A stretch of DNA of 64,000 nucleotides. It comes from Candidatus Polarisedimenticolia bacterium (lineage in GTDB: Bacteria > Acidobacteriota > Polarisedimenticolia > Gp22-AA2). This document shows, piece by piece, positions 8,260 through 48,609 of this stretch. Positions within the stretch are counted from its first letter, which is position 1. Each line of letters opens with the position of its first letter. The notes under the pieces were generated by a model. That model ran no database searches. It was not told where the DNA came from and saw only the letters and a program-made list of their open reading frames with translations. The translations under genes were made by a program, and so were the position numbers. The DNA lies in the NCBI GenBank assembly GCA_036005805.1, contig DASYQE010000210.1, forward strand, positions 17,061 through 81,060. The letters run 5' to 3'.

Positions 8260-9449
8260 GCGTGCACCACACCCTTCCCGCCTTCGATGAAGCGATCGAA
8301 CTGCTCCACCTCGGCGAAGCGACGGTCCAACTGCGGCCGGAGGAACTTGAGCCGGCCGAAGTACACCTTCTCCTGCACCTGGTTGCCGGCCGAACGCGCC
8401 ATGTCCCAGAGGTGATAGGCGGTCTGGAAGAGGATGTCCACGTAGCGCTCTTCGCCACCGTGCGCCATCATCTCGGCCTGCTCGAACAGGTCGCGGGCCT
8501 TTCTCTCGTCGCGCCTCAGCTCGTGCACCTGCCCCATGTAGAGGAGCGCATAGGACGCGCAGCGCCGGTAGCCCTCACGCTGGGCGACCTGCAGCGCCTC
8601 CGACAACTCGCGCAGGCCCCGCTCCACCTTCCCGACGCGGGCGTGGCACAGGCCGATGTTGGTGCGGATGAGGGTGAGATCGTGTTTCGTGACCACCGGC
8701 TCGAGCCGGGTGCGGGCCTCGCGGAAGCTCTCGAGGGCCTTCTCGAACTCGCCCTGCTCGAACTGGATCCGGGCGACCCGGTGCAGCGCGTAACCCTCGT
8801 ACTCCAGGTTGCCGGCGGCGCGGGCGATGTCCAGGCTCTTTTCCGCCTCGAGCACCGCCAGGTAGGCGTCCCCCTTGTCGGCGTGGGCGTCCGCGAGGCA
8901 CAGGAGCACGAGCGCCGTCGTCTCCGGCTGGATCTCACGGTGACGCCGGAGAATGATGCGCAGCTCGGTCTCGGCCAGGCTGATCTTGCCCATCCTCAGG
9001 AGGGACCGGGCGAGGTTGAACCGGGCCCGCGCCAGGACGTCCGGCGCGACCGATTCCTCGACCCCCGATTCCAGCCGGGCGAGGGCCTTCTCGTAGACCG
9101 AGTAGGCGCGGGCGAAATTCCCCTGCTCCCACTCGCGGTTCCCCTCCGACCTCAGCGCCTCGTAGCTGGCGGCCTCGGCCGGCTCGAAAGGCTCGACCTT
9201 CTCGAGCTCCAGAAGGTCGGAGAAGTTCTGGATCGAGACGTTGAAGATGTTGGCCAGCAGGCACAGCTTGTCGAACGACGGGTAGCAGATCCCGCGTTCG
9301 TAGCGCGACAACTGGGAGTTGTCGATCTCCCCTCCCTCCTGCCGGGCTTTGTCCTCCACCCGCCGGAGAGAGAGTCCGTAGCCGGTGCGCAGCCTGCGCA
9401 GGTAGTTCCCCAGCCGTTGGCTGCCTCGAATTTCGCCTTCAAGTTCCAT
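8256..9449 (-). CDS. XRE-family helix-turn-helix transcriptional regulator with a C-terminal TPR domain
   Basis: N-terminal HTH (LGNYLRRLRTGYGLSLRRVEDK...LSRYERG) followed by repeated TPR-like helices. Confidence 0.75.
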   Translation of the reverse strand: MELEGEIRGSQRLGNYLRRLRTGYGLSLRRVEDKARQEGGEIDNSQLSRYERGICYPSFDKLCLLANIFNVSIQNFSDLLELEKVEPFEPAEAASYEALRSEGNREWEQGNFARAYSVYEKALARLESGVEESVAPDVLARARFNLARSLLRMGKISLAETELRIILRRHREIQPETTALVLLCLADAHADKGDAYLAVLEAEKSLDIARAAGNLEYEGYALHRVARIQFEQGEFEKALESFREARTRLEPVVTKHDLTLIRTNIGLCHARVGKVERGLRELSEALQVAQREGYRRCASYALLYMGQVHELRRDERKARDLFEQAEMMAHGGEERYVDILFQTAYHLWDMARSAGNQVQEKVYFGRLKFLRPQLDRRFAEVEQFDRFIEGGKGVVHA

Positions 9450-9468
9450 GGTTCTCGACCTCCGCTGC

Positions 9469-9535
9469 CCTCGGGCGAATTCCGGACCACCTGCCTCCGA
9501 CCCACCGGCCAGGGGATCGAGGCGAATTGCCCGAG
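9469..9535. promoter_or_regulatory. Repeated GGCGAATT half-sites forming an imperfect inverted repeat (CTCGGGCGAATT ... AATTGCCCGAG), a candidate operator for the adjacent XRE regulator
   Basis: Repeat seen directly in the sequence. It lies 20 to 85 nt upstream of the regulator's start codon, in the divergent intergenic region. Confidence 0.25.
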
Positions 9536-9688
9536 AGGGTGCGGTGATGGGCCCGCCCTGTCAAGAAAGGATTGTAACTCCATCGCGGGGCGGGTGCAGC
9601 ATCCTCCAATAGGTATCCTCAACCGCCGGGCTCAGGCTTGACTTCCCGCCCCGGGGGTCCCTACCTTCCCGCCTCGGGGGAAAGGCCC

Positions 9689-10423
9689 ATGCTCGCTGCC
9701 AAGTCCCACGTTCGGGAAGGGATCCTGTCGAGCGCCACGTTCCCAGCCCTCCTCTATTCCATCCTCAAAAGGGCCGACACCGGGGTCCTCACCCTGACCG
9801 GCGAGATCAGCGAAAAGACCATCTACGTCCAGGACGGGCGGCCCATCTTCGCCACCTCGAACGACCGGGACGACCGGCTCGGGCAGGTCCTCTTCAAGAC
9901 GGGGCAGGTCTCGCTCGACGGCCTGATGAACGCCGTCGAGGTGTCGGTCAAGTCCGGAAAGCGGCTGGGCACCGTGCTGGTCGAGCAGGGCCTGATCCAG
10001 CCGCACGAGCTCGTGGAAGGGGTGGGCGTCCAGGTCCGCTCCATCATCCACAGCCTCTTCCTCTGGACGCGCGGCAGCTACCGGTACGCGCCCGGGCCGC
10101 TTCCCACGGACGAGGTCATCACGCTGAAGCTCAGCCCGGGCGATCTCATTCTCGAGGGAATCCGCACCATCGACAGCTGGGGACGCATCTGGGAGGCGGT
10201 GGGCCCGCTCGAAGCGACCTACAAGACGACCGAGCGTCTCGAAACCCTGGTGAAGGACATGACCCTGTCGCTCGAGGAGTGGAACCTGCTGTCGCATTGC
10301 GAACAGCCGGTCCACCTGAAGGATCTCTGCCGGCTCTCTCCGGTCGCCGACTTCGAGATCTGCAGGTTCCTCTGGGCGGCGCAGACACTGGGCATCGTGC
10401 AGCGCGGCTCAGGTCGCGACTGA
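9689..10423 (+). CDS. DUF4388-like domain protein of unknown function
   Basis: The N-terminal roughly 100 aa (GVLTLTGE...TIYVQDGRPIFATSNDRDDRLGQVLFKTGQVSLDGL) resemble DUF4388; the family assignment is from memory. Start taken at the ATG preceded by GGGGGAAAGG. Confidence 0.5.
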   Translation: MLAAKSHVREGILSSATFPALLYSILKRADTGVLTLTGEISEKTIYVQDGRPIFATSNDRDDRLGQVLFKTGQVSLDGLMNAVEVSVKSGKRLGTVLVEQGLIQPHELVEGVGVQVRSIIHSLFLWTRGSYRYAPGPLPTDEVITLKLSPGDLILEGIRTIDSWGRIWEAVGPLEATYKTTERLETLVKDMTLSLEEWNLLSHCEQPVHLKDLCRLSPVADFEICRFLWAAQTLGIVQRGSGRD

Positions 10424-38176: not shown

Positions 38177-39040
38177 ATGTCGCTCACCCGCGTCGCCGTC
38201 ATCGGAGCCGGAACCATGGGGCACGGAATCGCCCAGGTGGCGATCCAGTCCGGCCTCGAAGTGCGCCTGTGCGATGCCCAGCCGCTGGTGCTCGACCGGG
38301 CCCTGCAGCAGATCCGCTCCGGGCTCGACCGGACGGTCGAGAAGGGGCGGCTCGACGCGGCCGGACGCGAGGCCGCCCTCGCCCGCCTCGCGACCGCCCG
38401 CGATCCGCGCGAGGCGTCGCACGACGCGGACCTCGTCATCGAAGCCATCCCCGAGCGGCTCGAGCTCAAGCAGGCGCTGTTCGCCTCCCTCGAGGAGATC
38501 GTCCCCGCCGGGTGCCTGCTCGCCAGCAACACCTCGTCGCTGCGGATCGCCTCCATCGCCGCAGGACGGCGCCGGCCGGAGCGCATCCTCGGGATGCACT
38601 TCTTCAACCCGGTGCCGGTGATGGCGCTCCTGGAGATCGTCGTGCACGCCGGGACCGCCCCCGGGTCTCTGGAGCAGGCGCGCGAGGCGGGAGCACGGCT
38701 CGGCAAGACCTGCATCGTCGTGCAGGACTCCCCCGGCTTCGCCAGCAGCCGGCTCGGGATCGCGCTCGGCCTCGAGGCGATCCGGATGGTCGAGCAGGGG
38801 GTCGCTTCCCCGCAGGACATCGACACCGCCATGGAGCTCGGGTACCGGCATCCGATGGGGCCGCTGCGCCTGACCGACGTCGTGGGGCTCGACGTGCGCC
38901 TCGCCATCGCCGAATCGCTGCACCGCGAGCTGGGAAGCGAAGCGTTCCGCCCGCCCCGGCTGCTGGTCGAGATGGTGCGCGAGGGACGCCTCGGCAAGAA
39001 GAGCGGCCGCGGCTTCTACGACTGGAGCGGGAGTTCCTAG
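38177..39040 (+). CDS. 3-hydroxyacyl-CoA / 3-hydroxybutyryl-CoA dehydrogenase (NAD-binding)
   Basis: VAVIGAGTMGHGIAQV Rossmann motif and a 3HCDH C-terminal domain. Confidence 0.85.
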   Translation: MSLTRVAVIGAGTMGHGIAQVAIQSGLEVRLCDAQPLVLDRALQQIRSGLDRTVEKGRLDAAGREAALARLATARDPREASHDADLVIEAIPERLELKQALFASLEEIVPAGCLLASNTSSLRIASIAAGRRRPERILGMHFFNPVPVMALLEIVVHAGTAPGSLEQAREAGARLGKTCIVVQDSPGFASSRLGIALGLEAIRMVEQGVASPQDIDTAMELGYRHPMGPLRLTDVVGLDVRLAIAESLHRELGSEAFRPPRLLVEMVREGRLGKKSGRGFYDWSGSS

Positions 39041-40059
39041 AACAGGTACGCGAGAGCGAAGCCGATCTGGGCGCACATCATCATCAGGTACATGTGCTTC
39101 CAGGAGGGATGGTTCTCGCTGCGCGCCAGCGACCCCGGGTCGCGCAGGATGAGCCGGGCGGTGAAGGCACCCCACACCGCGAGCCCGAGGCCCAGGATCG
39201 TCAGGAGCGCCGGCCGGCCGGTCAGGATCGGTCCCCCCTCGATGGGATCCGGGATCCACGCCCCCAGCGGGAGCAGCAGCCACGGCAGGACGAAGAACGG
39301 CGCGACGAAACGCGCCGCCCGCTCCACGCCCCAGCGGATCGGTAGGGTGAGGCAGCCGTGCGCCGCGTCGCCTTCCATGTCGGAGAAGTCCTTGCTCGTC
39401 GTCGCCCCGAGCAGGAACAGCAGGAAGACGCTGCCGATGTACCAGGGCTCGAGGTGCAGCACGCTCCCGACCATCGACCACCCGGCCACCTTCAGGAGAC
39501 AGCCACGCGGCACGGCGATGGTGACGTTGGCCCACAGCCCGAAGCGCTTCGTCCTCCCCCAGCGCGGATCCGAATACACCAGCGTCAGCACCATCCCCGC
39601 CAGGTAAATGAAGAAGCACTCGTGCGCCCGCAGCGGGGCCGTGAGGCGCGCCCCCCAGTCGGTGTACGGGAAAATGACGACCAGCCAGGTCGGCACGATG
39701 GCGAGCACGTAAAGGAGCAGCGCGAAGCGGTGCGACGCTTCGAGCGTGATGGCGCCGGACGGGAGCGGCCGCGACGGCTTGTTGCGCCGGTCGATCTCGA
39801 GGTCGTGGATCTGGTTCAACACATTGCTCGCCGCGTTGAGGAGCGCGGCGCACAGCGACCCCAGCGCGATGGTCAGCAGCACCGCCATCGTGAAGCGGCG
39901 CGCCGGGTCGGGATTGTGGGCGCTGCCGAAGGCGGTGAGCGCGCCCGACACCACGCCGAAGGTCGGCGGCAGGAGCGTGAAGGGTCGCGTGAAGGCGAAA
40001 TAGAGACGCGCGCGCCCCGCGAACGAGCGCGGCTCATCGAGTCGCAGTCCTTCGCTCAC
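39037..40059 (-). CDS. UbiA-family aromatic/lipid prenyltransferase
   Basis: NVLNQIHDLEIDRRNKPSRPLPSG, the first Asp-rich motif, and a DxxxD-like KDFSDMEGD. GTG start overlapping the upstream stop as GTGA. Confidence 0.75.
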   Translation of the reverse strand: MSEGLRLDEPRSFAGRARLYFAFTRPFTLLPPTFGVVSGALTAFGSAHNPDPARRFTMAVLLTIALGSLCAALLNAASNVLNQIHDLEIDRRNKPSRPLPSGAITLEASHRFALLLYVLAIVPTWLVVIFPYTDWGARLTAPLRAHECFFIYLAGMVLTLVYSDPRWGRTKRFGLWANVTIAVPRGCLLKVAGWSMVGSVLHLEPWYIGSVFLLFLLGATTSKDFSDMEGDAAHGCLTLPIRWGVERAARFVAPFFVLPWLLLPLGAWIPDPIEGGPILTGRPALLTILGLGLAVWGAFTARLILRDPGSLARSENHPSWKHMYLMMMCAQIGFALAYLF

Positions 40060-41387
40060 AGGCCGGCCGGGACGAGCGCCCCGACGACGCCCGCCAGGGC
40101 GCCGACCAGGGTGTTGGAGAAATTCACCGCCTCGTTGTCGAGGAGCCCGCGGCGCTCGAGCGTCGCCCCGAGGAACGAGTCGGCGCTCGATCCCAGGAAG
40201 GAGGCGAGAAGGACCACCCAGAGAAGCGACGCCGGGATCATCGCGGTCGCGATGGCCAGACCCGCGACCAGCGCCGCCGCCCCCAGGCCCGCGAGCGTGC
40301 CGAGGAGCGTGACGGCGCCGTCGGTGCCGATGGGAACGCGCTTGAGCGTGGTGATGAGCACGGGCTTCCCTCCCCACGCCTGCCCGACCTCGCTCGACAC
40401 GGTGTCGAACGCCGCGGTCGCGTAAGCGCAGACCAGCGCCAGGAGGAACAGGCCCGGAGCGGTCGCGGTCGCCGACAGGAGCGCCAGCATCGTCGCCACG
40501 CCGCAGTTGGCGAGGGCGTGCCGGGCCGACCGCGCTCCTTTTTTCTCCTGCGCCACACCGAGCCGCTCCTTGCGAAGCCTTCCGGCGCGCGTCGTCGCCG
40601 TGCCGAGCAGGAAGAAGGCCGTCAGGATCGCGAAGGCGCGCCACCCGCCGAAACCCCAGGTCACGGTGCCGACGGCCCAGCCGGCCACGGCCCCGGATCG
40701 ATCCACGGCGCGGATGCGCAGGAAGACGAACGCGAGGACCGCGTTGACCGCCGCCCCGATGGCGAGCTGCGGCGCGACCTCCGCGAAGACCTGCGGTAGC
40801 CGCAGGGCGTCCCCTTCGATGAGCGCGCAGAGGAAAAGCGCCGACAGAAGCGGCACCGACAGGTTGTCGTTGAGCCGCCACGGCAGCGACTCGACGAACG
40901 CGGCGAACAGCGCCGTCGGCGCCATCAGCCAGGCGGCCTCCCCCGCCGGCCGTCCCATGGAGACGAGGATGCCGAACCCGGCCAGCCCGGCCGCGACGAT
41001 GAAGGCCGCGCTGCCGGCCCAGGACTTGACGTGGTTCCACGGCAGGCGCGCGCGCCCCCAGCGTTCGCCGGCGGCGGAGGCGGCCGGGTCTCCCATCGCG
41101 AAGATCACCCAGGCGGCCGCCGCCACTTCCATCCGCCAGCCGAACAGGAGCACGAGCAGCAGCACCGCGACCGGGTACAGATGGATCCCCGACTCGAGGG
41201 GACGCCGCCTCTCGGCGCTGCGGAACAGCGACGCGCCGATCCGCGGCAGGACGAAGTAGTTGAAGAGGCACGCCACGGCGGCGACGAGCGCCGCCTGCGG
41301 GACGCTGAGCTTCTTGAGGAGAAGCGCCAGGAGCCCGGAACCGGCGTGAACGAGGCGGCGCGCCGCGGGGTCGTGCGCGCCGCTCAT
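40056..41387 (-). CDS. Fusion membrane protein: CTP-dependent polyprenol/phytol kinase-like N-terminal half (Sec59/DGK1/VTE5 family) plus a DUF92/VTE6-like C-terminal half
   Basis: The N-terminal half has the GDPAASAAGERWG motif typical of CTP-dependent prenol kinases. The C-terminal half matches DUF92 (FDTVSSEVGQ...PIGTDGAVTLLGTLAG). Both family assignments are from memory. Confidence 0.55.
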   Translation of the reverse strand: MSGAHDPAARRLVHAGSGLLALLLKKLSVPQAALVAAVACLFNYFVLPRIGASLFRSAERRRPLESGIHLYPVAVLLLVLLFGWRMEVAAAAWVIFAMGDPAASAAGERWGRARLPWNHVKSWAGSAAFIVAAGLAGFGILVSMGRPAGEAAWLMAPTALFAAFVESLPWRLNDNLSVPLLSALFLCALIEGDALRLPQVFAEVAPQLAIGAAVNAVLAFVFLRIRAVDRSGAVAGWAVGTVTWGFGGWRAFAILTAFFLLGTATTRAGRLRKERLGVAQEKKGARSARHALANCGVATMLALLSATATAPGLFLLALVCAYATAAFDTVSSEVGQAWGGKPVLITTLKRVPIGTDGAVTLLGTLAGLGAAALVAGLAIATAMIPASLLWVVLLASFLGSSADSFLGATLERRGLLDNEAVNFSNTLVGALAGVVGALVPAGL

Positions 41388-42292
41388 GCCTCCGCGTCCC
41401 CTGCCTCGCGCCCGAGGAAATCGTCGAGCGCCTCGGTCCAGGGACGCGGCGCCGCCCCCGTCAGCCGTGCGAAGAGCCGGGTGTCGAGCGGGGATGCCGC
41501 CGGGCGGGCGGTCCCGCCGGCCGGAACGACGGTGCGCACCGCCTCGAGCCGGACCCCGTCCAGGAGCCCGGTCGCCTCGAGCGCGCGGCGCGCCAGGTCG
41601 AAGCGCGACGCCACGCCGGTGTTGACCACGTGAACGATGCCCCGGTGCTCGACGCGCAGGAGCGACGCGATGCCGTCCGCCAGGTCGTCGGTGAGCGTCG
41701 GAGAGCCGCGCTGGTCATCCACCACCCGCAGCGGCTCCCCCGCCCGGGCGCGCGCCAGGATCCGCCCCACGAAGTGGTCTCCGTGCTCGCCGTAGAGCCA
41801 GGCGGTGCGCACGATGAGGTGGTCTTCGTTGGCGACGGCGACGCGGCGCTCGCCTTCCAGCTTGGAGAGCCCGTACGCCTGGATCGGCGCGGGCACGTCG
41901 GACTCGACGTACGGGCGTTCGAGCCGGCCGTCGAAGACGAAATCGGTGCTGACCTGCACGACGCGGCAGCCCGACCCCGCGGCGGCGCGCGCCACGTGCT
42001 CCGCCCCCTCGGCGTTGACCTCCAGCGCCTGCGCCGGGTCGCGGGTGCAGCCGTCCACGTCGGTCCAGGCGGCGCAGTTGATGATCACGGTCGGGTTGAG
42101 ACGGACGATCTCCGCCTCCATCCCGAAGCGGTCGAGGATGTCGATCTCCGCGCGCGTCGCCCCGATGGTCTCGGGATACTCCGGCTCGAGGCGGCGCACC
42201 AGTGCGCTCCCGAGCATGCCGCCGGCGCCGATCACCAGGGGCCGGATGTCGCCGCCGCGCTTCCGGCCGGCGCTGTCGTCTTCGAGGGTCAC
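41384..42292 (-). CDS. rfbD: dTDP-4-dehydrorhamnose reductase
   Basis: RmlD-like sequence (INCAAWTDVD, YGLSKLEGE, SPT). GTG start (VTLEDD) overlapping the lptD stop as GTGA; an internal ATG at 42217 is an alternative. Confidence 0.8.
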   Translation of the reverse strand: MTLEDDSAGRKRGGDIRPLVIGAGGMLGSALVRRLEPEYPETIGATRAEIDILDRFGMEAEIVRLNPTVIINCAAWTDVDGCTRDPAQALEVNAEGAEHVARAAAGSGCRVVQVSTDFVFDGRLERPYVESDVPAPIQAYGLSKLEGERRVAVANEDHLIVRTAWLYGEHGDHFVGRILARARAGEPLRVVDDQRGSPTLTDDLADGIASLLRVEHRGIVHVVNTGVASRFDLARRALEATGLLDGVRLEAVRTVVPAGGTARPAASPLDTRLFARLTGAAPRPWTEALDDFLGREAGDAEA

Positions 42293-44985
42293 AGGCCTCC
42301 GGCTCCGATGCTCTGATGCAGGTCCACGACGTTGCCGACGCCCTTGAGGTTGACCAGAAAGCGGATCTCCGTCAGGTCGGATCCGACGAAGTTGCGGTTG
42401 AGGTACTCGAACTGGAAGCCGCAGCACTGGGTGTTGTAGCCGGCGGTGTAGCGCTGGTCGCGGAAGCGCGGCTCCCCCGGCAGGACGTCCCCCAGCTCGT
42501 AGTTGGCCTGGAATCCGAGCAGCACCTTGCGCTCGAAGAGCGTGCCCTCGCCGTGCACGCCGAGCTGGCTGCGATTGAACGGGTTGGTGAAGGCCTGCCC
42601 CTGCTCCAGGAGCGCCTTGCCCTCGAGGTCGCGGCTGACGCTCCAGGTGAAGTCGAGGAAGCCCCGCCCCGGCGCGCGCAGGTTGGCGCTGAGCGAGGCA
42701 TCGCGGATCTCGCGGAACAGCACGTCGAACGAGGTGCGCAGGTCGACGCTCGTGTTGATCGTCGGGTTGACCCGCAAAACCCCCGTCACCGGCGAGACCT
42801 GCCGCTGCTCGTCGAGCGCGAACGACGCGCTGAGCGGCCCGAGGAAAGAGTAGTCCTGGGTGATCTCGAAGGAGGCGATCTCGACGGTCGAAAGCTGTTT
42901 CGGCTTCGCCGTGCCCCCGGGTCCCGGCACACCCGGCGCGCCCGGTTCCCCCTCGGCGCCCAGCGGCGCCGCCTCCGGGGTCGTCTCGGCGGTCGTCCCC
43001 GCCGCCGGCACGCGCACCGGCTGCACCTTCTGCAGGGCCCGCGCCAGCGCGTCCTGCGGATTGCCGTCTCCCGCCGCCGGACCGAACGGCATGCCGAGCG
43101 CCGCCATTCCTCCCGCCTCGCGCTTGGCGTAGAGCCGCGTCGTGAACCCGTACGTCAGCCGGTTGCTGTTGTAGGAGATCGTGTCGACGTCGTCGAAGAG
43201 GATGATGTCCCCCGGGTTGTCCACCTGCGACAGGTAGGTGTAGCGCAGCGTCGGCTCGATGGTGTTCTTGAACTGGGGGGAGAAGTCGCTGTCGGGCGTG
43301 TCGAAGATGCGCGACAGCTTCGGACCCACGAGGTTGAGCCCCGCCTGGTAGACGCGGCGGTCGAAGTTGTCGTCGACGATGAGCGTGCGCTCGAGGTTGC
43401 GGATGCCGTCGCCCTCCCCGAAATCCCCCGTGCCCGGGAGGTTGTCGCAGCCGAGATCGTCCTCGGGCCCGAACACACCCAGGGGCGGATTGTCGCGCTC
43501 GGCGTCGAGCACGCCGTTGCCCTCGCCGAAATCCCCCGTGTCCGGAACGTTGTCGCAGCCGAGATCGGTGCGCTGGCTCTTGCTGTAGACGGTGTCGCGC
43601 AACCCGGCATTCGCGTCGATGTCGAGCCACGGCACCGGCGACAGCTGCGACGAAATGACCGGGTTGACGTCGGCCCGCTGGTACACGGCCTCGCGGTCCC
43701 CCTTGTCGAAGGCGTCCACCGAGGAGTCGAGGGTGAAGAACAGGAGCGAGTCGCCGATGCGCCGGCGGCGGGTGCGGAACTCGATCTCCGGCTCCGTCCA
43801 GCGGACGAAGGTGCGGTTGGCGAAGGCCAGGGTCGGCTGGCCGTACGCGAACGGGACGATCGGGTCCTGCACCAGCTGCTCGCGCCGCTCGGCCCACATG
43901 TTGAGGGAGTTGAATCCCCAGTTGCGCGTCAGGTACGCCTTGCTCACCGCCTGCGGGTTGCTGCTCACCCGGATGTCGCGCTCGAAGTCGAGGAAGTAGT
44001 CGAAGTCCGAGACGAACGTCATGTTGGTGACGAAGCGCCATTCCGGGTCGAGCTGCTGCTGGTGGGTGTAGTCGATGAGCCAGCGATCGGTCGGCACCCC
44101 TGGCTGGTTCTCATCCGCGGCCACCTGGTCGCGGATGTAGTAGCCGGTGAACTGGCCGCGGCCGTTTTCCGAAGGGCGGTAGCGGAACTCGTTGCCGAAG
44201 CCGTAGCCCGACTTCGACATGTAGTCGAAGTAGAAGGTCGAATCGAGACTGCGGCCGATGGCCCAGTACCAGGCGTCGCTCAGGATCGTGCCGCTCCGCT
44301 GCGAGAAGCCGAACTCCGGGAAGAGGAGTCCCGAGGCGCGATCGGTCTTGATCGGCCAGACCAGGTAGGGGGAATAGAACACCGGCACCGCCCCGAGCTT
44401 GAACTGGATGTGGTGCAGGTAGGCATATTCCCCCAGCTCGAGCACGCCGCGCCCGAGCTTGAAGGACCAGTAGGGCGTCGGCTGGGTGCACGCGGTGAAG
44501 TTGGCGTCGTACAGGACCATCTGGTCCTTGGACGTCTGCTCGATCCGCGCCGCCTCGAACATGATGCTCGGCTCGGCGTAGCCGCGCGCGTTGAAGAACT
44601 GTCCGGTCGACGATTCCAGGTTGTAGTCAATGCTGTCGGCGGTGATCCGGGCGCGCGCCTGGTCGAGGACGACGTTGCCCTCGGCGTGCGCCTCGTGAGT
44701 CGACGGAGTGTAGCGCACCAGATCGGCCTGGAGCCTCAGGTCGCCGCACTTGATGTCGACGTAGTCCTTGAGGATCAGCTCGTCACGGTCGAGCACCGAG
44801 CCCGGTCCGGCGGCGATCTCGAGGGCGCAGCCGCCCGGTCCCTTGCCGAAGGACTGGCGCTGCGGGGCGCCGCCGGGCGGCTCCGGCCGCTGCTCCTTCG
44901 GCGCGGCATCGAGTCCGGCCGCCGCGAAGGCGGCCGCGCCGAGAACGAACAGGAGCGCGGCTCCGGCGGCGAGGGGCCTGGGCAT
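42289..44985 (-). CDS. lptD: LPS-assembly outer-membrane protein LptD (OstA)
   Basis: Signal peptide, an OstA/LptA-like N-terminal jellyroll and a large C-terminal beta-barrel. Start taken at the ATG (MPRPLAAG). Confidence 0.8.
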   Translation of the reverse strand: MPRPLAAGAALLFVLGAAAFAAAGLDAAPKEQRPEPPGGAPQRQSFGKGPGGCALEIAAGPGSVLDRDELILKDYVDIKCGDLRLQADLVRYTPSTHEAHAEGNVVLDQARARITADSIDYNLESSTGQFFNARGYAEPSIMFEAARIEQTSKDQMVLYDANFTACTQPTPYWSFKLGRGVLELGEYAYLHHIQFKLGAVPVFYSPYLVWPIKTDRASGLLFPEFGFSQRSGTILSDAWYWAIGRSLDSTFYFDYMSKSGYGFGNEFRYRPSENGRGQFTGYYIRDQVAADENQPGVPTDRWLIDYTHQQQLDPEWRFVTNMTFVSDFDYFLDFERDIRVSSNPQAVSKAYLTRNWGFNSLNMWAERREQLVQDPIVPFAYGQPTLAFANRTFVRWTEPEIEFRTRRRRIGDSLLFFTLDSSVDAFDKGDREAVYQRADVNPVISSQLSPVPWLDIDANAGLRDTVYSKSQRTDLGCDNVPDTGDFGEGNGVLDAERDNPPLGVFGPEDDLGCDNLPGTGDFGEGDGIRNLERTLIVDDNFDRRVYQAGLNLVGPKLSRIFDTPDSDFSPQFKNTIEPTLRYTYLSQVDNPGDIILFDDVDTISYNSNRLTYGFTTRLYAKREAGGMAALGMPFGPAAGDGNPQDALARALQKVQPVRVPAAGTTAETTPEAAPLGAEGEPGAPGVPGPGGTAKPKQLSTVEIASFEITQDYSFLGPLSASFALDEQRQVSPVTGVLRVNPTINTSVDLRTSFDVLFREIRDASLSANLRAPGRGFLDFTWSVSRDLEGKALLEQGQAFTNPFNRSQLGVHGEGTLFERKVLLGFQANYELGDVLPGEPRFRDQRYTAGYNTQCCGFQFEYLNRNFVGSDLTEIRFLVNLKGVGNVVDLHQSIGAGGL
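43411..43567. repeat. Two copies of a 49-bp direct repeat (45 of 49 identical, period 108 bp) inside lptD, encoding DLGCDN(V/L)P(D/G)TGDFGEG(N/D)G
   Basis: Copy 1 is at 43411..43459 and copy 2 at 43519..43567. It is an in-frame protein repeat with Asp/Gly-rich, calcium-binding-like character. Confidence 0.7.
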
Positions 44986-45794
44986 CAGGAGACGGTGACC
45001 CCGGAATAGGCGACGACCGAGGTCATGTCGCCGTTCGTCTGGCCGGAGTGACCGTAGGCGACCAGGGTCGCCGTTCCGGCGCCGAGCCGGCGCGCCGCCT
45101 CGAGCCCGGCGACCGCCGGGGCCACCCCGCACATGGTGATCCGGCCGTCACGCACGACCCGCCAGAGGCCTTCCGGATCGATCGCGAGAATGCGTTCGAG
45201 CGCCGGACGGTCGCGCCGTTCCACCTCGTCCGCCGGCTCGTAGTGCGTCATGTCGCTGCTGAGGACGAGGGTGACCGGATCCGCGCAAGCGCCGATCACG
45301 CGGGCGAGTCCGCGGCCGAGCTCGAGGAGCGCGTCGAGGCGGTGCGTCCCCACGCAGATCGGCACGAAACGACCCGCGGGAGCCAGGTGCTGCAGGAACG
45401 GGATCTGCACCTCGATGGAGTGCTCGCGACGGTGCGCCGCCACGTCGACGCGCGCGCGGCCGACCTCCGCCAGGACCGAGGCGGCCAGAGGCTGGTCGAT
45501 CGGCGCATCGCCGAGCGGCGTGCGCCACGCCCCTTCGGACTGCACGGCGATCGGCTCCCCCTCCCCCGTGTGGTTCGGTCCCAGCACGATGAATCGTTCC
45601 GGAAGCGGCCCGGACAGGTATGTCCGGGCGGCGATGCGGCCGGAATAGACGTAGCCGGCATGGGGCACGAGGAGTGCGCGCGGCGGCGGGCCATCCGGCA
45701 CCCGGCCTCCTGCGGTGAGCGCTTCGAGCTCGCTTCGAAGCGCACCTTCGCCGGCCGGATAGAAGGAACCGGCCACCGCCGGCCTGCGAATCAT
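44985..45794 (-). CDS. MEMO1 family protein (AmmeMemoRadiSam system protein B-like)
   Basis: MIRRPAVAGSFYP...VPHAGYVYSG...GPNH motifs. Its stop overlaps the lptD start by 1 nt (TGATG). Confidence 0.7.
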   Translation of the reverse strand: MIRRPAVAGSFYPAGEGALRSELEALTAGGRVPDGPPPRALLVPHAGYVYSGRIAARTYLSGPLPERFIVLGPNHTGEGEPIAVQSEGAWRTPLGDAPIDQPLAASVLAEVGRARVDVAAHRREHSIEVQIPFLQHLAPAGRFVPICVGTHRLDALLELGRGLARVIGACADPVTLVLSSDMTHYEPADEVERRDRPALERILAIDPEGLWRVVRDGRITMCGVAPAVAGLEAARRLGAGTATLVAYGHSGQTNGDMTSVVAYSGVTVS

Positions 45795-45934
45795 CGCCGT
45801 CCCCACCCGTCGTGCACGCGGCCCGGGGGCGTCCCGAGGCCGCGCGATGCTACCAGACGATCGTTCCAAAGTAAAGAAACACAATCACTTGCGTTGATGC
45901 GCCGGGTCGACGGCGTGCTACAATTCCCGGCTCC

Positions 45935-46804
45935 ATGCGCATCGCAATGGCCCAGATCGCGCCGCCCCTGGGCGACCCGGCGGCAAGCCTCAAGATCCAC
46001 CTCGCCGCCGCCCGCAAGGCGATCCGGGCGGGAGCGCGCCTCGTCGTGTTTCCCGAGCTCAGCCTGACGGGCTACCGCCTCCAGGACCTGGTGCCGGAGG
46101 TGGCGCGGCCGATCGATTCGAAGGGGCTGCTCGCGCCCCTCTTCGCCCTGAGCCGGCGCATCCCCATCGCGTTCGGCCTGGTGGAGGAATCGGAAGGACA
46201 TCGCTACTACAACAGCGCGGTCTTCCTGGAAGGGGGCCGTGTCCGGCACGTGCACCGCAAGGTCTATCTGCCGACCTACGGCATGTTCGAGGAGGGGCGC
46301 TACTTCTCGGCGGGCGATTCGTTCACCGCCTTCCGCACCCGGCTCGGCCGCATCGGCCTGCTCGTGTGCGAGGACCTCTGGCACCCGGCGAGCGCGCTGC
46401 TCCTGGCGCAGGATGGCGCCGACTACGTCCTCGTGCTCGCCAACAGCCCCGTGCAGTCGGGGGAAGGCGCCGGCGGACCGCGCAACCACGAGACCTGGCG
46501 CGATCTCATCCGGGTCACGGCGCAGCTGCAGACGGTGTTCGTCGTGCTCGTCAACCGCGGCGGCTGCGAGGACGGCATCTCCTTCTCGGGAGCGTCGGCG
46601 GCGGTCGATCCGCTCGGCCGCGTCATCGCGGAGGGACGGATGCTCGGCGACGACCTGGTCGTCTGCGACCTCGATCGGGCCGCGCTGCGGCGCGCGCGGA
46701 CCTTCTATCCGCTGCTGCGCGACGAGCGGCTCCCGGTGCTGCAGCGCGAGATCGGCAGGCTGCTCGCGGCGCCGGAGGCGGGGCGCGGGCCGGGGGGTTC
46801 GTGA
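45935..46804 (+). CDS. Carbon-nitrogen hydrolase (nitrilase superfamily)
   Basis: VVFPELSLTGY (catalytic Glu), HRKVYLP (Lys) and LLVCEDLWHP (Cys) catalytic triad context. Confidence 0.8.
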   Translation: MRIAMAQIAPPLGDPAASLKIHLAAARKAIRAGARLVVFPELSLTGYRLQDLVPEVARPIDSKGLLAPLFALSRRIPIAFGLVEESEGHRYYNSAVFLEGGRVRHVHRKVYLPTYGMFEEGRYFSAGDSFTAFRTRLGRIGLLVCEDLWHPASALLLAQDGADYVLVLANSPVQSGEGAGGPRNHETWRDLIRVTAQLQTVFVVLVNRGGCEDGISFSGASAAVDPLGRVIAEGRMLGDDLVVCDLDRAALRRARTFYPLLRDERLPVLQREIGRLLAAPEAGRGPGGS

Positions 46805-48609
46805 AGATTCACCTGGCCTACAAGTGCCACGACCTCGGGCGGATGGAGTTCTATTCGCGCTTCACGCCGCTCGGGCTGGGAACGATCACGGCGCTCCTGC
46901 GCCGCGAAGGCTTCGACGCCACCCTCGTCAACCTGAGCGCCTGGTCGTGGCCGAAGGTGAAGCGCTTCTTCGAAACCGAGCGGCCCGACATCGTCGGCGT
47001 GTCGGCCTTCACCTTCAACCGCCACGAGGCGATGCGTGTCGCCGCCCTGGCGCGCGCCGCCAACCCGCGGTGCCTCGTGGTGGCGGGAGGACCGCACGCC
47101 ACCCACCTGCCGCATCACCTGCTCGACCGTTATCCGCAGATCGATCTCGTCGCCCGCGGCGAGGGCGAGGAGACGATGCTCGAGATCGTCCGCGCGGCCG
47201 CCTCCGGGACGCTTCAGCGACCGGACCGCGGCGCAGGCGCCATGCTCGGCGCCGACCTCGCGGGAGCGGGGGCGGAGGGACCGCAGCCCATCGCCGGGCT
47301 CTCCTATCGCACGACCCAAGGCATCCGGGACACGCCCGAGCGGCCGGTGATCCGCGAGCTCGATCGGCTGCCGCATCCCGGCGCCGACCCGCACATCGTC
47401 GGCGTGGACGCGGAATCGCAGTTCGAGTTCGTCATCACCTCGCGCGGCTGCCCGGCCGCCTGCACCTTCTGCTCGTCGCCGGAATTCTGGGGGCGCGGCC
47501 TGCGGTTCCGCTCCGCCGCGCACATGATCGAGGAGGTGCGGATCCTGCGCGAACGGCACGGGGTCGTGTACCTGTCGATCCGCGACGACACCTTCACCGC
47601 GCATCGCCAGCGGGTGCTCGACTTCTGCCGCGGGCTCGAGGAGTCGGGGATCGACCTGCTCTGGGACTGCCAGTCGCGTGTCAACATCGTGGACGAGGAG
47701 CGCCTCGTCGCCATGCGGCGCGCCGGCTGCACGCACATCCAGTACGGCGTCGAATCGGGATCGCCGCGCATGATCGAGCGGCTGAACAAGGGGATCACCG
47801 TCGAGGAGATCCGCCGCGCCGCGGCGCTGACCCGCCGGGCCGGGCTCGGGCTGTCGATCTACCTCATCACCGGCATCGATGGCGAGACCGACGAGGACCT
47901 CGCGTCCACCGTGCGGCTCATCGAGGAGATCCGGCCGCACGACGGCCTGGTCTCGCCGCTCACGGTCTATCCGGGCACGGGGCTCGCCGACGAGGCGCGG
48001 CGCCGCCACGGCCTGACCGACGACTTCTGGATCCGAAGCACCGACGAGGCGTACTTCGTGCGCGACGACCCGTGGACCCGGCGCGCGGTGCGCACCCTCC
48101 GATCGACGCTGCGGCGCGTCGGCCGGGAGGCGGCGTATGGTCCGGAGGATTTCGACGCCCAGCGCCGTCTCGTGGGCGACTGCGCCACGCTGTGGCTGGC
48201 CCGGGGCGAATCCGCCGAGCGACGCGGCCGGCTGCTGCAGGCGCGCGACGAGTACGCGGCCCTCCTCTCGGCGCATCCGCGCAGCCTCTGGGCCCGGATG
48301 CGCCTGGGCCACATCGCGACGCGGCGGCGACGCTTCGCCGAGGCGGTGGAGCATTACGAGGCCGCCCTGGCCGTCGTCCCGGCCTTCCGGCACGCGGCCC
48401 GGCTGCTGGGCGCCGCGCGGCGTGACGCGAAACGGGCCGGTCAGGCCGGCGCGGCGGCGCCGGTCTCGGCCTCGACCCGGTTGACCAGGCGGCCGATGCC
48501 CTCGATCGACACGATCACCTCGTCCCCCGGCGCGAGCGGCCCGACCCCTTCCGGGGTGCCGGTCGCGACCACGTCCCCCGGCTCGAGGGTCATCACCCGG
48601 GAGATGTAG
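46801..48609 (+). CDS. B12-binding-domain radical SAM protein (class B) with a C-terminal TPR-like region
   Basis: GTG start overlapping the upstream stop as GTGA. N-terminal B12-binding Rossmann region, a CPAACTFCSS radical-SAM motif, and C-terminal helical repeats. The last roughly 170 nt overlap the convergent FAH-family gene. Confidence 0.75.
   Translation: MKIHLAYKCHDLGRMEFYSRFTPLGLGTITALLRREGFDATLVNLSAWSWPKVKRFFETERPDIVGVSAFTFNRHEAMRVAALARAANPRCLVVAGGPHATHLPHHLLDRYPQIDLVARGEGEETMLEIVRAAASGTLQRPDRGAGAMLGADLAGAGAEGPQPIAGLSYRTTQGIRDTPERPVIRELDRLPHPGADPHIVGVDAESQFEFVITSRGCPAACTFCSSPEFWGRGLRFRSAAHMIEEVRILRERHGVVYLSIRDDTFTAHRQRVLDFCRGLEESGIDLLWDCQSRVNIVDEERLVAMRRAGCTHIQYGVESGSPRMIERLNKGITVEEIRRAAALTRRAGLGLSIYLITGIDGETDEDLASTVRLIEEIRPHDGLVSPLTVYPGTGLADEARRRHGLTDDFWIRSTDEAYFVRDDPWTRRAVRTLRSTLRRVGREAAYGPEDFDAQRRLVGDCATLWLARGESAERRGRLLQARDEYAALLSAHPRSLWARMRLGHIATRRRRFAEAVEHYEAALAVVPAFRHAARLLGAARRDAKRAGQAGAAAPVSASTRLTRRPMPSIDTITSSPGASGPTPSGVPVATTSPGSRVITREM

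Follow-up and report, generated by a model that had tools for sequence, protein, structure and literature searches.

Which genes return free farnesol or geranylgeraniol to metabolism, from prenol through prenyl phosphate to prenyl diphosphate, has yet to be established in most organisms (PMC9782597, PMC10849223). The question is raised afresh by a 64,000-nucleotide stretch of DNA from Candidatus Polarisedimenticolia bacterium (contig DASYQE010000210.1; this whole stretch is called the window below), in which five minus-strand genes between 39037 and 45794 encode, in order, a MEMO-family protein, LptD, RmlD, a 443-amino-acid membrane protein and a UbiA-superfamily prenyltransferase. The membrane protein is a fusion of two domains that resemble the two successive kinases of phytol salvage. 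We tentatively favour a reading in which the fusion is a two-step kinase dependent on cytidine triphosphate (CTP) that converts a prenol to prenyl diphosphate and feeds the UbiA enzyme, a real possibility which nevertheless falls short of being probable. The architecture and predicted role of such a protein are already known; its bacterial lineage and operon context are new.

The fusion is a single polypeptide

The fusion is encoded by one open reading frame (ORF; 40056-41387) free of stops and frameshifts. Among the best 120 of approximately 490 database relatives nearly all are around 440 amino acids long, with 50-96% identity, and derive from JGI, ENA, NCBI and Logan assemblies; those that carry a name are entered as 'DUF92 domain-containing protein' from Candidatus Polarisedimenticolia or Acidobacteriota. 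The single-ORF form recurs in more than 100 clusters of independent assemblies, with about 110 full-length homologues and 64 genome loci, and a 98%-identical locus is present in a metagenome-assembled genome (MAG; locus L001). AlphaFold2 gave a mean predicted local distance difference test score (pLDDT) of 91 and a predicted template modelling score (pTM) of 0.86 for the full chain, with a continuous helix (residues 194-224) bridging the halves. An N-terminal COG0170-like domain of about 200 residues and a C-terminal PF01940 domain are hence found in one polypeptide.

An artefact, in which two genes had been joined by a sequencing or annotation error, might be suspected from the stand-alone N-domain and DUF92 genes that exist elsewhere (L088) and from a related MAG locus with a split or degraded version (L087). 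Because the fusion recurs in independent assemblies and is modelled as one confident chain, and given the uninterrupted frame in the window, this explanation is effectively refuted and its probability is next to nil. The protein is therefore genuine, as had been predicted, rather than two misjoined genes.

The C-terminal half belongs to the DUF92 family

PF01940 matches residues 215-430 of the fusion with an E-value of 2e-54 and a score of 185 bits, well above its gathering cutoff of 27.5, which places the C-terminal half in DUF92, the family of VTE6, in agreement with the original prediction. TIGR00297 scores 168.4 bits, under its hypothetical-equivalog cutoff of 205.85. Residues 320-370 carry the motif AAFDTVSSEVGQAWGG...GTDGAVTLLGT, and an hhalign comparison of this region with residues 97-135 of the N-domain gave a weak match (P=1.4e-3) over a GD..A...G...G...K(S/T)..G(S/T) core. 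The match of DUF92 to Escherichia coli CdsA was not significant (P=0.059). The weak match between the two halves fits a common origin of both as diverged members of one cytidylyltransferase-like superfamily.

COG1836/PF01940 has itself been reported as homologous to the PF01148 cytidylyltransferase family (Makarova, Galperin, Koonin 2015, PMC5898192), and our DUF92/N-domain match agrees with that report, although it is much weaker than the HHpred result given there. In 2011 a comparative-genomics study placed COG1836 in phytol-phosphate metabolism (PMC3223725), and VTE6 is a characterised member of COG1836/DUF92 (PMC9782597). On family membership alone, the DUF92 half is predicted to act as a prenyl-phosphate kinase.

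The N-terminal half carries a cytidylyltransferase-type core

Alignment by hhalign of a 123-sequence N-domain profile with E. coli CdsA (P=2.4e-5, probability 75%) pairs D100, G107, G111, K121-S, G125 and E166-S with the CdsA pattern ADSGAY..G..GK...SPGKTWQG...TES. The core of the superfamily, namely D-x-x-A-x-x-x-G-x-x-x-G, K-(S/T)-x-x-G-(S/T) and E-S, is present in the domain. The GDxxASxxG motif on which the original prediction had relied is G99-D100-P-A-A-S-A-A-G107, in which D100, A103 and G107 are invariant in 32 homologues. H14, G111, K121, G125, E166, D174 and N175 are also invariant in this set.

Furthermore, the domain begins with a charged clamp, R10-R11-L-V-H14, with an invariant H14 and conservation of at least 90% at R10. 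In PfPolK an N-terminal basic clamp R-K-x-x-H (R29, K30, H33) has been proposed to orient the CTP phosphates (PMC10849223), and from the description of that enzyme we infer that R10-R11-x-x-H14 occupies the equivalent positions. Loops that are basic and presumably cytoplasmic hold the invariant charged residues of the domain, which AlphaFold2 modelled with a mean pLDDT of 93.

Searched against 1.84 billion representative proteins, a 32-sequence profile of the N-domain found 8141 relatives, some of them fusions and others stand-alone proteins. All three stand-alone homologues that carry a source name are called 'dolichol kinase' by IMG. The alignment with the CdsA core, the RxxxH clamp together with D100, K121 and E166, and these names provide indirect but consistent grounds for placing the N-half in the Sec59/VTE5-type branch of the cytidylyltransferase superfamily.

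A tblastn search of plasmids with the N-domain returned one weak Brevibacillus homologue with the same N-terminal motifs and an unrelated C-terminal half. It is an unannotated ORF of 439 amino acids on the Brevibacillus laterosporus megaplasmid NZ_CP011076.1 (L080, 2614-3933) with RK..H, D..A...G and ES...DN motifs; the unrelated half is multi-pass and represents another fusion partner for the kinase-like domain.

The UbiA gene lies closest to enzymes with C20 donors

The last gene of the unit matches PF01040 with an E-value of 4e-31 and 108.5 bits (gathering cutoff 34.2) and encodes both Asp-rich motifs of the superfamily, N-Q-I-H-D-L-E-I-D and D-M-E-G-D, which are also found in the alignment with structure 6m31. 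Its nearest solved structures are Methanocaldococcus jannaschii DGGGPS (6m31, E=2.6e-17), with which it shares the near-identical Asp-rich motifs NxxxDxEIDRxNKPxRPLPSG and KDFxDMEGD, and chlorophyll synthase (E=7.5e-11).

Scores against the curated NCBIfam models fall well below the cutoffs throughout. The DGGGP synthase models PRK12884, PRK12882 and PRK12883 give 103 bits against 269, 74.5 against 296 and 61 against 353, and the chlorophyll synthase models give 89.6 against 313 (PRK07566), 72.8 against 212 (TIGR01476) and 55.1 against 436 (TIGR02056). The HPT model scores 64 bits, also below its cutoff. Scores this far below the cutoffs mean that the gene cannot be filed as DGGGPS or ChlG. 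The characterised relatives nearest to it (DGGGPS, ChlG and HPT) use C20 donors.

Models of UbiA, MenA, MqnP, CyoE and decaprenyl-phosphate phosphoribosyltransferase all lie between 17 and 27 bits on this gene. A quinone prenyltransferase of the UbiA or MenA kind was rejected on these grounds (TIGR01474 20.6 bits against 275, MenA NF004749 23.3 against 277, MqnP 18.5 against 430), and so was a decaprenyl-phosphate phosphoribosyltransferase of the Rv3806c type (NF008977, 17.3 against 234). The protein thus stands apart from the enzymes of ubiquinone and menaquinone synthesis; a firm grouping with them, together with an unconserved linkage to lptD, would have refuted the original prediction.

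The gene order is conserved in two acidobacterial classes

A scan of species-representative genomes yielded 79 loci, 64 with the fusion, all of these on Polarisedimenticolia- or Thermoanaerobaculia-like contigs. Counted only at fusion loci with enough flanking sequence, lptD lies upstream of the fusion at 44 of 46 loci, rmlD upstream at 50 of 53, and a UbiA gene downstream on the same strand at 49 of 57 (within 500 nucleotides at 35), although these are not independent observations because the loci are related by descent and were chosen as best matches. A HpnA-like extended short-chain dehydrogenase/reductase (SDR) stands immediately upstream of the fusion at 53 of 60 related loci. The order lptD-rmlD-(SDR)-fusion-UbiA is kept at approximately 60 loci in Polarisedimenticolia and Thermoanaerobaculia, and the predicted linkage to lptD and rmlD is accordingly conserved.

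The fusion is 41-70% identical across the two classes that share the UbiA linkage. LptD is only around 30% identical between them, so the shared gene order is unlikely to reflect mere recency. In Thermoanaerobaculia the genes form a co-directional, tightly packed array of lptD, rmlA(long), rmlD, a 4,6-dehydratase-like gene, a GalE-like gene, the HpnA-like SDR, the fusion and UbiA. Ties of the fusion to isoprenoid metabolism, and to genes for sugars and the envelope, recur, and its link to UbiA is specific to the two acidobacterial classes. Terriglobia-like loci have a stand-alone DUF92 gene with neither partner.

The HpnA-like SDR is absent from the whole window, whose closest relatives also lack it. 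Examples elsewhere are at L002 ~8990-9974, L023 ~8830-9852, L082 6929-7993, L089 4803-5801 and L091 4976-5965. Its scores against TIGR03466 are 154-220 bits, it bears a resemblance to SdmB and OleD as well, and it is present in other lineages too. By analogy with farnesol dehydrogenase or DHRSX, it may act on a prenal or prenol substrate.

Several loci depart from the common arrangement (Table 1). In L088 (2186-6292) a 193-amino-acid N-domain gene overlaps the start of a 240-amino-acid DUF92 gene, with a polyprenyl diphosphate synthase and a 641-amino-acid protein without a Pfam match upstream. Genes of the alkaline-phosphatase superfamily (PF01663, PF00884) recur beside the fusion or the split pair in lineages without an adjacent UbiA: at L082 9368-15812 (four tandem paralogues, followed by the Wza-type exporter), L091 7360-8868 and L088 1-2168. 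L087 (912-3451) holds RmlD, a truncated SDR of 123 amino acids, a stand-alone N-domain of 201 amino acids and a 203-amino-acid protein without a Pfam match; GrpE, HtpX and ClpB come next, just as they do in the window, and the locus is possibly a degraded or frameshifted copy. A sigma/anti-sigma insertion lies at L005 11343-13318, with equivalent gaps in L003, L009, L012 and L019. The MAG labels of L001, L008, L020, L021 and L037 (Verrucomicrobiia, Binatia, Cryosericum, Dongiaceae and Deltaproteobacteria) conflict with their shared gene order and their 55-98% protein identity to Polarisedimenticolia or Thermoanaerobaculia, and mis-binning or mislabelling is likely.

Organisation of the five-gene unit

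The window has a GC content of approximately 70%, and all five genes are single open frames without internal stops, with third-position GC of 0.85-0.94. Adjacent genes overlap by TGATG (memo/lptD), GTGA (lptD/rmlD), ATGA (rmlD/fusion) and GTGA (fusion/UbiA). Such stop/start overlaps are ordinary in compact high-GC operons and are by themselves unremarkable. The profile matches and exact junction reads agree with the gene coordinates, identities and four overlaps given in the original prediction. The GTG starts of rmlD and UbiA are the presumed ones. The rmlD start has GGAGG just upstream, and the sole alternative in-frame start, V20, would cut the Rossmann motif; on a contig with 86% identity, a gene caller picked a later start. 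Were UbiA to begin at its next in-frame start (codon 36), N-terminal residues that align in homologues would be lost.

We propose that all five genes are transcribed together, as a single unit, in a Polarisedimenticolia-like acidobacterium. No prominent internal terminator was seen in a scan of the unit. The presumed promoter region is the divergent gap upstream of memo, an assignment made from position, since a scan of 45795-45934 found no sigma-70 consensus. Downstream, the 3' end of a convergent 3-hydroxyacyl-CoA dehydrogenase gene overlaps the ubiA stop.

Table 1. Coordinates and supporting profiles of features in the window, and composition of loci with other arrangements
Feature	Position	Strand	Profiles or composition
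MEMO-family protein of 269 aa, heading the unit	44985-45794	-	PF01875 E=2.4e-63; TIGR04336 284 bits
LptD, outer-membrane lipopolysaccharide (LPS) insertase, 898 aa, lineage-specific inserts	42289-44985	-	PF19838, PF04453
RmlD, dTDP-4-dehydrorhamnose reductase, 302 aa with GTG start	41384-42292	-	TIGR01214, PF04321
Fusion, N-domain, aa 1-205, Sec59/VTE5-like, COG0170-type putative CTP-dependent polyprenol kinase	40773-41387	-	
Fusion, C-domain, aa 206-443, DUF92/COG1836 (VTE6 family)	40056-40772	-	PF01940
UbiA-superfamily prenyltransferase, 340 aa, DGGGPS/ChlG/HPT-like branch	39037-40059	-	PF01040
Divergent intergenic region, presumed promoter region of the unit	45795-45934	.	140-nt gap, MEMO (-) / CN-hydrolase (+)
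Locus L082			SDR, fusion, four PF01663 phosphodiesterases, Wza-type exporter
Locus L083/L084			lone fusion near mreB and mla genes
Locus L088			split pair, N-domain gene overlapping DUF92 gene, beside polyprenyl synthase
Locus L089			memo, lptD, rmlD, SDR, fusion, IS91 insertion, UbiA
Locus L090			lone fusion
Locus L091			RmlD, three SDRs, fusion, sulfatase/phosphodiesterase

RmlD is assigned by TIGR01214 (259.1 bits against a cutoff of 224.05) and PF04321 (E=1e-78). LptD lies above the gathering cutoff of approximately 22.5 with both PF19838 (66.4 bits) and PF04453 (62.4 bits), its N-terminal OstA domain is marginal (19.3 against 20.4), and the NCBIfam equivalogs match partially, the proteobacterial equivalog cutoffs not being reached. 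Only residues ~57-471 of LptD match LptD models. The protein also has a Pro/Ala/Gly-rich low-complexity insert and a duplicated motif, LGCDN[VL]P[DG]TGDFGEG[ND]G[VI], whose two copies lie about 35 residues apart. The MEMO protein scores as AmmeMemoRadiSam system protein B (TIGR04336), yet it heads an lptD operon, and no AMMECR1 partner was seen. Divergent from it (45935-48609) lie genes for a CN-hydrolase and for a B12-binding radical SAM/TPR protein. Polarisedimenticolia-like loci retain the memo-lptD pairing, whereas Thermoanaerobaculia do not.

The housekeeping neighbours of the unit are the CN-hydrolase, the B12-binding radical SAM protein, FAA hydrolase, the 3-hydroxyacyl-CoA dehydrogenase, arginase, GrpE, HtpX, ClpB and PolA. 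LPS-core genes occur elsewhere in the window (kdsB, a kdsD-like gene, a PfkB kinase, a GT9 heptosyltransferase and LolA).

Discussion

The last two genes of the unit would constitute a membrane isoprenoid-activation module. The Sec59/VTE5-like domain would convert a free isoprenoid alcohol to the prenyl monophosphate at the expense of CTP, the fused VTE6-like DUF92 domain would add the second phosphate, and the translationally coupled UbiA enzyme would use the prenyl diphosphate to alkylate an acceptor. Both phosphorylations would take place at the cytoplasmic face of the inner membrane. The kinase activities, the use of CTP, the chain length, the acceptor and a functional tie to LptD and rhamnose synthesis are what we infer on the basis of homology and gene context.

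The pathway has a precedent. In plants and cyanobacteria VTE5 and VTE6 supply phytyl diphosphate to UbiA-family enzymes (HPT/VTE2 and chlorophyll synthase), by the same logic of a CTP-dependent prenol kinase, a DUF92 prenyl-phosphate kinase and a consumer from the UbiA superfamily. In those phototrophs, however, the two kinases are separate, unlinked proteins and the phytol comes from chlorophyll, whereas here the two domains are fused. Sec59/DOLK shares with the N-domain the K-(S/T)-x-x-G-(S/T) and D-x-x-A-x-x-x-G core, and its supply of dolichyl phosphate for glycosylation is echoed by the sugar and envelope context of the fusion; the eukaryotic enzymes are longer (~500 amino acids), with extra N-terminal helices and without a DUF92 domain. 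DGGGPS (6m31) and ChlG are the nearest characterised relatives of the UbiA protein and share both of its Asp-rich motifs. The present protein nevertheless has an N-terminal extension, is about 60 residues longer than M. jannaschii DGGGPS (340 against 283 amino acids) and scores far under the equivalog cutoffs, and neither GGGPS nor a chlorophyll pathway context was seen at the locus.

The architecture of the fusion has been described before. Several archaeal COG1836 proteins, such as Mbar_A3310 of Methanosarcina barkeri, bear an extra N-domain of approximately 210 amino acids that matches COG0170/Sec59 by HHpred at 99.85%, and the conserved context of archaeal COG1836, uppS alone, suggested a kinase step in isoprenoid metabolism (PMC5898192). 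Judged from that published description, these arCOG02245 proteins have the same Sec59-like plus DUF92 layout. They are archaeal with uppS as neighbour, whereas the present fusion is bacterial (Acidobacteriota), coupled to UbiA and placed behind lptD and rmlD.

The proposal of a two-step prenol kinase draws on several lines of evidence. The fusion and UbiA genes overlap and stay together on the same strand at most loci. The N-domain keeps the motif core of CdsA, a CTP-using enzyme, together with a PfPolK-like clamp, has invariant charged residues in presumed cytoplasmic loops and has homologues named as dolichol kinases. The C-half passes the DUF92 threshold and so falls in the family of VTE6, which is tied to phytol-phosphate metabolism. 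The split N-domain/DUF92 pair of L088 adjoins a polyprenyl synthase. Finally, VTE5 and VTE6 provide the precedent, and the UbiA protein is closest to enzymes that use C20 prenyl diphosphates.

A number of observations weigh against this proposal, and several concern the N-domain. An hmmscan of residues 1-214 at E<=10 gave no PF01148 or NCBIfam match and only a marginal DUF7670 in Pfam, so that no curated profile of the polyprenol kinase family (COG0170) recognises this half; the N-domain alignment, used as a profile against PDB sequences, drew no match, and Foldseek found no significant PDB match to the N-domain model. Likewise, ten stand-alone N-domain homologues (~190 amino acids) had no meaningful Pfam or NCBIfam match, and Foldseek with the full-length model gave no significant PDB match, Thermotoga maritima CdsA (4q2e) appearing at rank 33 with a probability of 0.51. 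The predicted Sec59/VTE5 character of this half is supported indirectly, by the CdsA alignment, the clamp and the IMG names. To our knowledge VTE6 is the sole DUF92 member with a known activity, and we know of no indication that the host is phototrophic, which makes the source of a free prenol unclear.

The gene context tells partly in the same direction. The most constant neighbour of the fusion is the HpnA-like SDR and not UbiA (53/60 against 49/57). In several Polarisedimenticolia loci the gap between fusion and UbiA holds genes for an ECF-type sigma factor and a putative anti-sigma factor, and in L089 it holds an IS91 transposase. Fusions without UbiA in other lineages lie near phosphodiesterase or sulfatase genes, or alone. 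Among the scanned ORFs of the window no gene for isoprenoid synthesis, acceptor formation, GGGPS or glycerol-1-phosphate (G1P) dehydrogenase was seen, no dedicated whole-genome search having been made.

The main rival explanation, which we consider unlikely but worth taking seriously, is that the fusion maintains a carrier lipid. The Sec59-like domain would make a long-chain polyprenyl phosphate for LPS or envelope-polysaccharide assembly and DUF92 would catalyse a phosphotransfer or cytidylyl reaction of a related kind on that lipid; the connection with lptD and rml would be functional and UbiA a secondary, lineage-specific addition. The upstream neighbours kept across lineages are indeed sugar-nucleotide enzymes and LptD, as in the Thermoanaerobaculia array, and the contexts of L082, with its Wza-type exporter after the phosphodiesterases, and of L091, with RmlD, SDRs and a sulfatase/phosphodiesterase, also fit. 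So do the uppS context of archaeal COG1836 and the closest similarity of the N-domain being to Sec59 (PMC5898192), as well as the 'dolichol kinase' names given by IMG. The five-gene unit, however, contains no glycosyltransferase, flippase or polymerase, and the carrier form would be lost again if the lipid were phosphorylated further to the diphosphate. This explanation accounts neither for the second kinase domain nor for the tight coupling to a DGGGPS/ChlG-like UbiA. Moreover, bacteria normally obtain undecaprenyl phosphate by dephosphorylating undecaprenyl diphosphate and need no CTP-dependent kinase for it.

A branch of archaeal-type ether-lipid synthesis is very improbable. The UbiA protein would then be a true DGGGP synthase, a view encouraged by M. 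jannaschii DGGGPS being its nearest solved structure with near-identical Asp-rich motifs, and the two domains of the fusion would be CarS/CdsA-like cytidylyltransferases acting on the resulting lipid phosphate rather than kinases, which accords with the placement of both halves in the cytidylyltransferase superfamily (PMC5898192 and our hhalign comparisons). Against this, the UbiA protein is far under the DGGGPS equivalog cutoffs (74-103 bits against 269-353), and a CarS identity of the N-domain was rejected as Pfam at E<=10 recovered no CarS-type model, the marginal DUF7670 being the only match. Furthermore, neither GGGPS, G1P dehydrogenase nor geranylgeranyl diphosphate synthase was seen within 10 kb on each side in a close relative or among the scanned ORFs of the window.

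The original prediction went further than the kinase proposal and connected the module to a prenylated or ether-linked envelope lipid. With no acceptor, GGGPS, G1P dehydrogenase or isoprenoid synthesis gene among the scanned ORFs, this remains speculation. We regard it as improbable that in Polarisedimenticolia and Thermoanaerobaculia the product of the fusion and UbiA is an envelope lipid or glycolipid with an isoprenoid attached (ether- or ester-prenylated), whose formation would be co-expressed with LptD and with the synthesis of deoxyhexoses. Co-transcription with lptD and rmlD may reflect either a shared pathway or simply a mixed operon that has been conserved.

Current understanding is not overturned by this locus, the architecture and predicted role being already in the literature. 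Nonetheless, a natural fusion of both candidate kinase domains with a coupled consumer offers a compact construct for testing the kinase role of DUF92 and the chain length it accepts. Its placement behind lptD and deoxyhexose genes in two poorly known acidobacterial classes marks a locus at which to probe for isoprenoids in the envelope and, were the envelope-lipid proposal true, it would point to a bacterial outer-membrane lipid built from activated free prenols.

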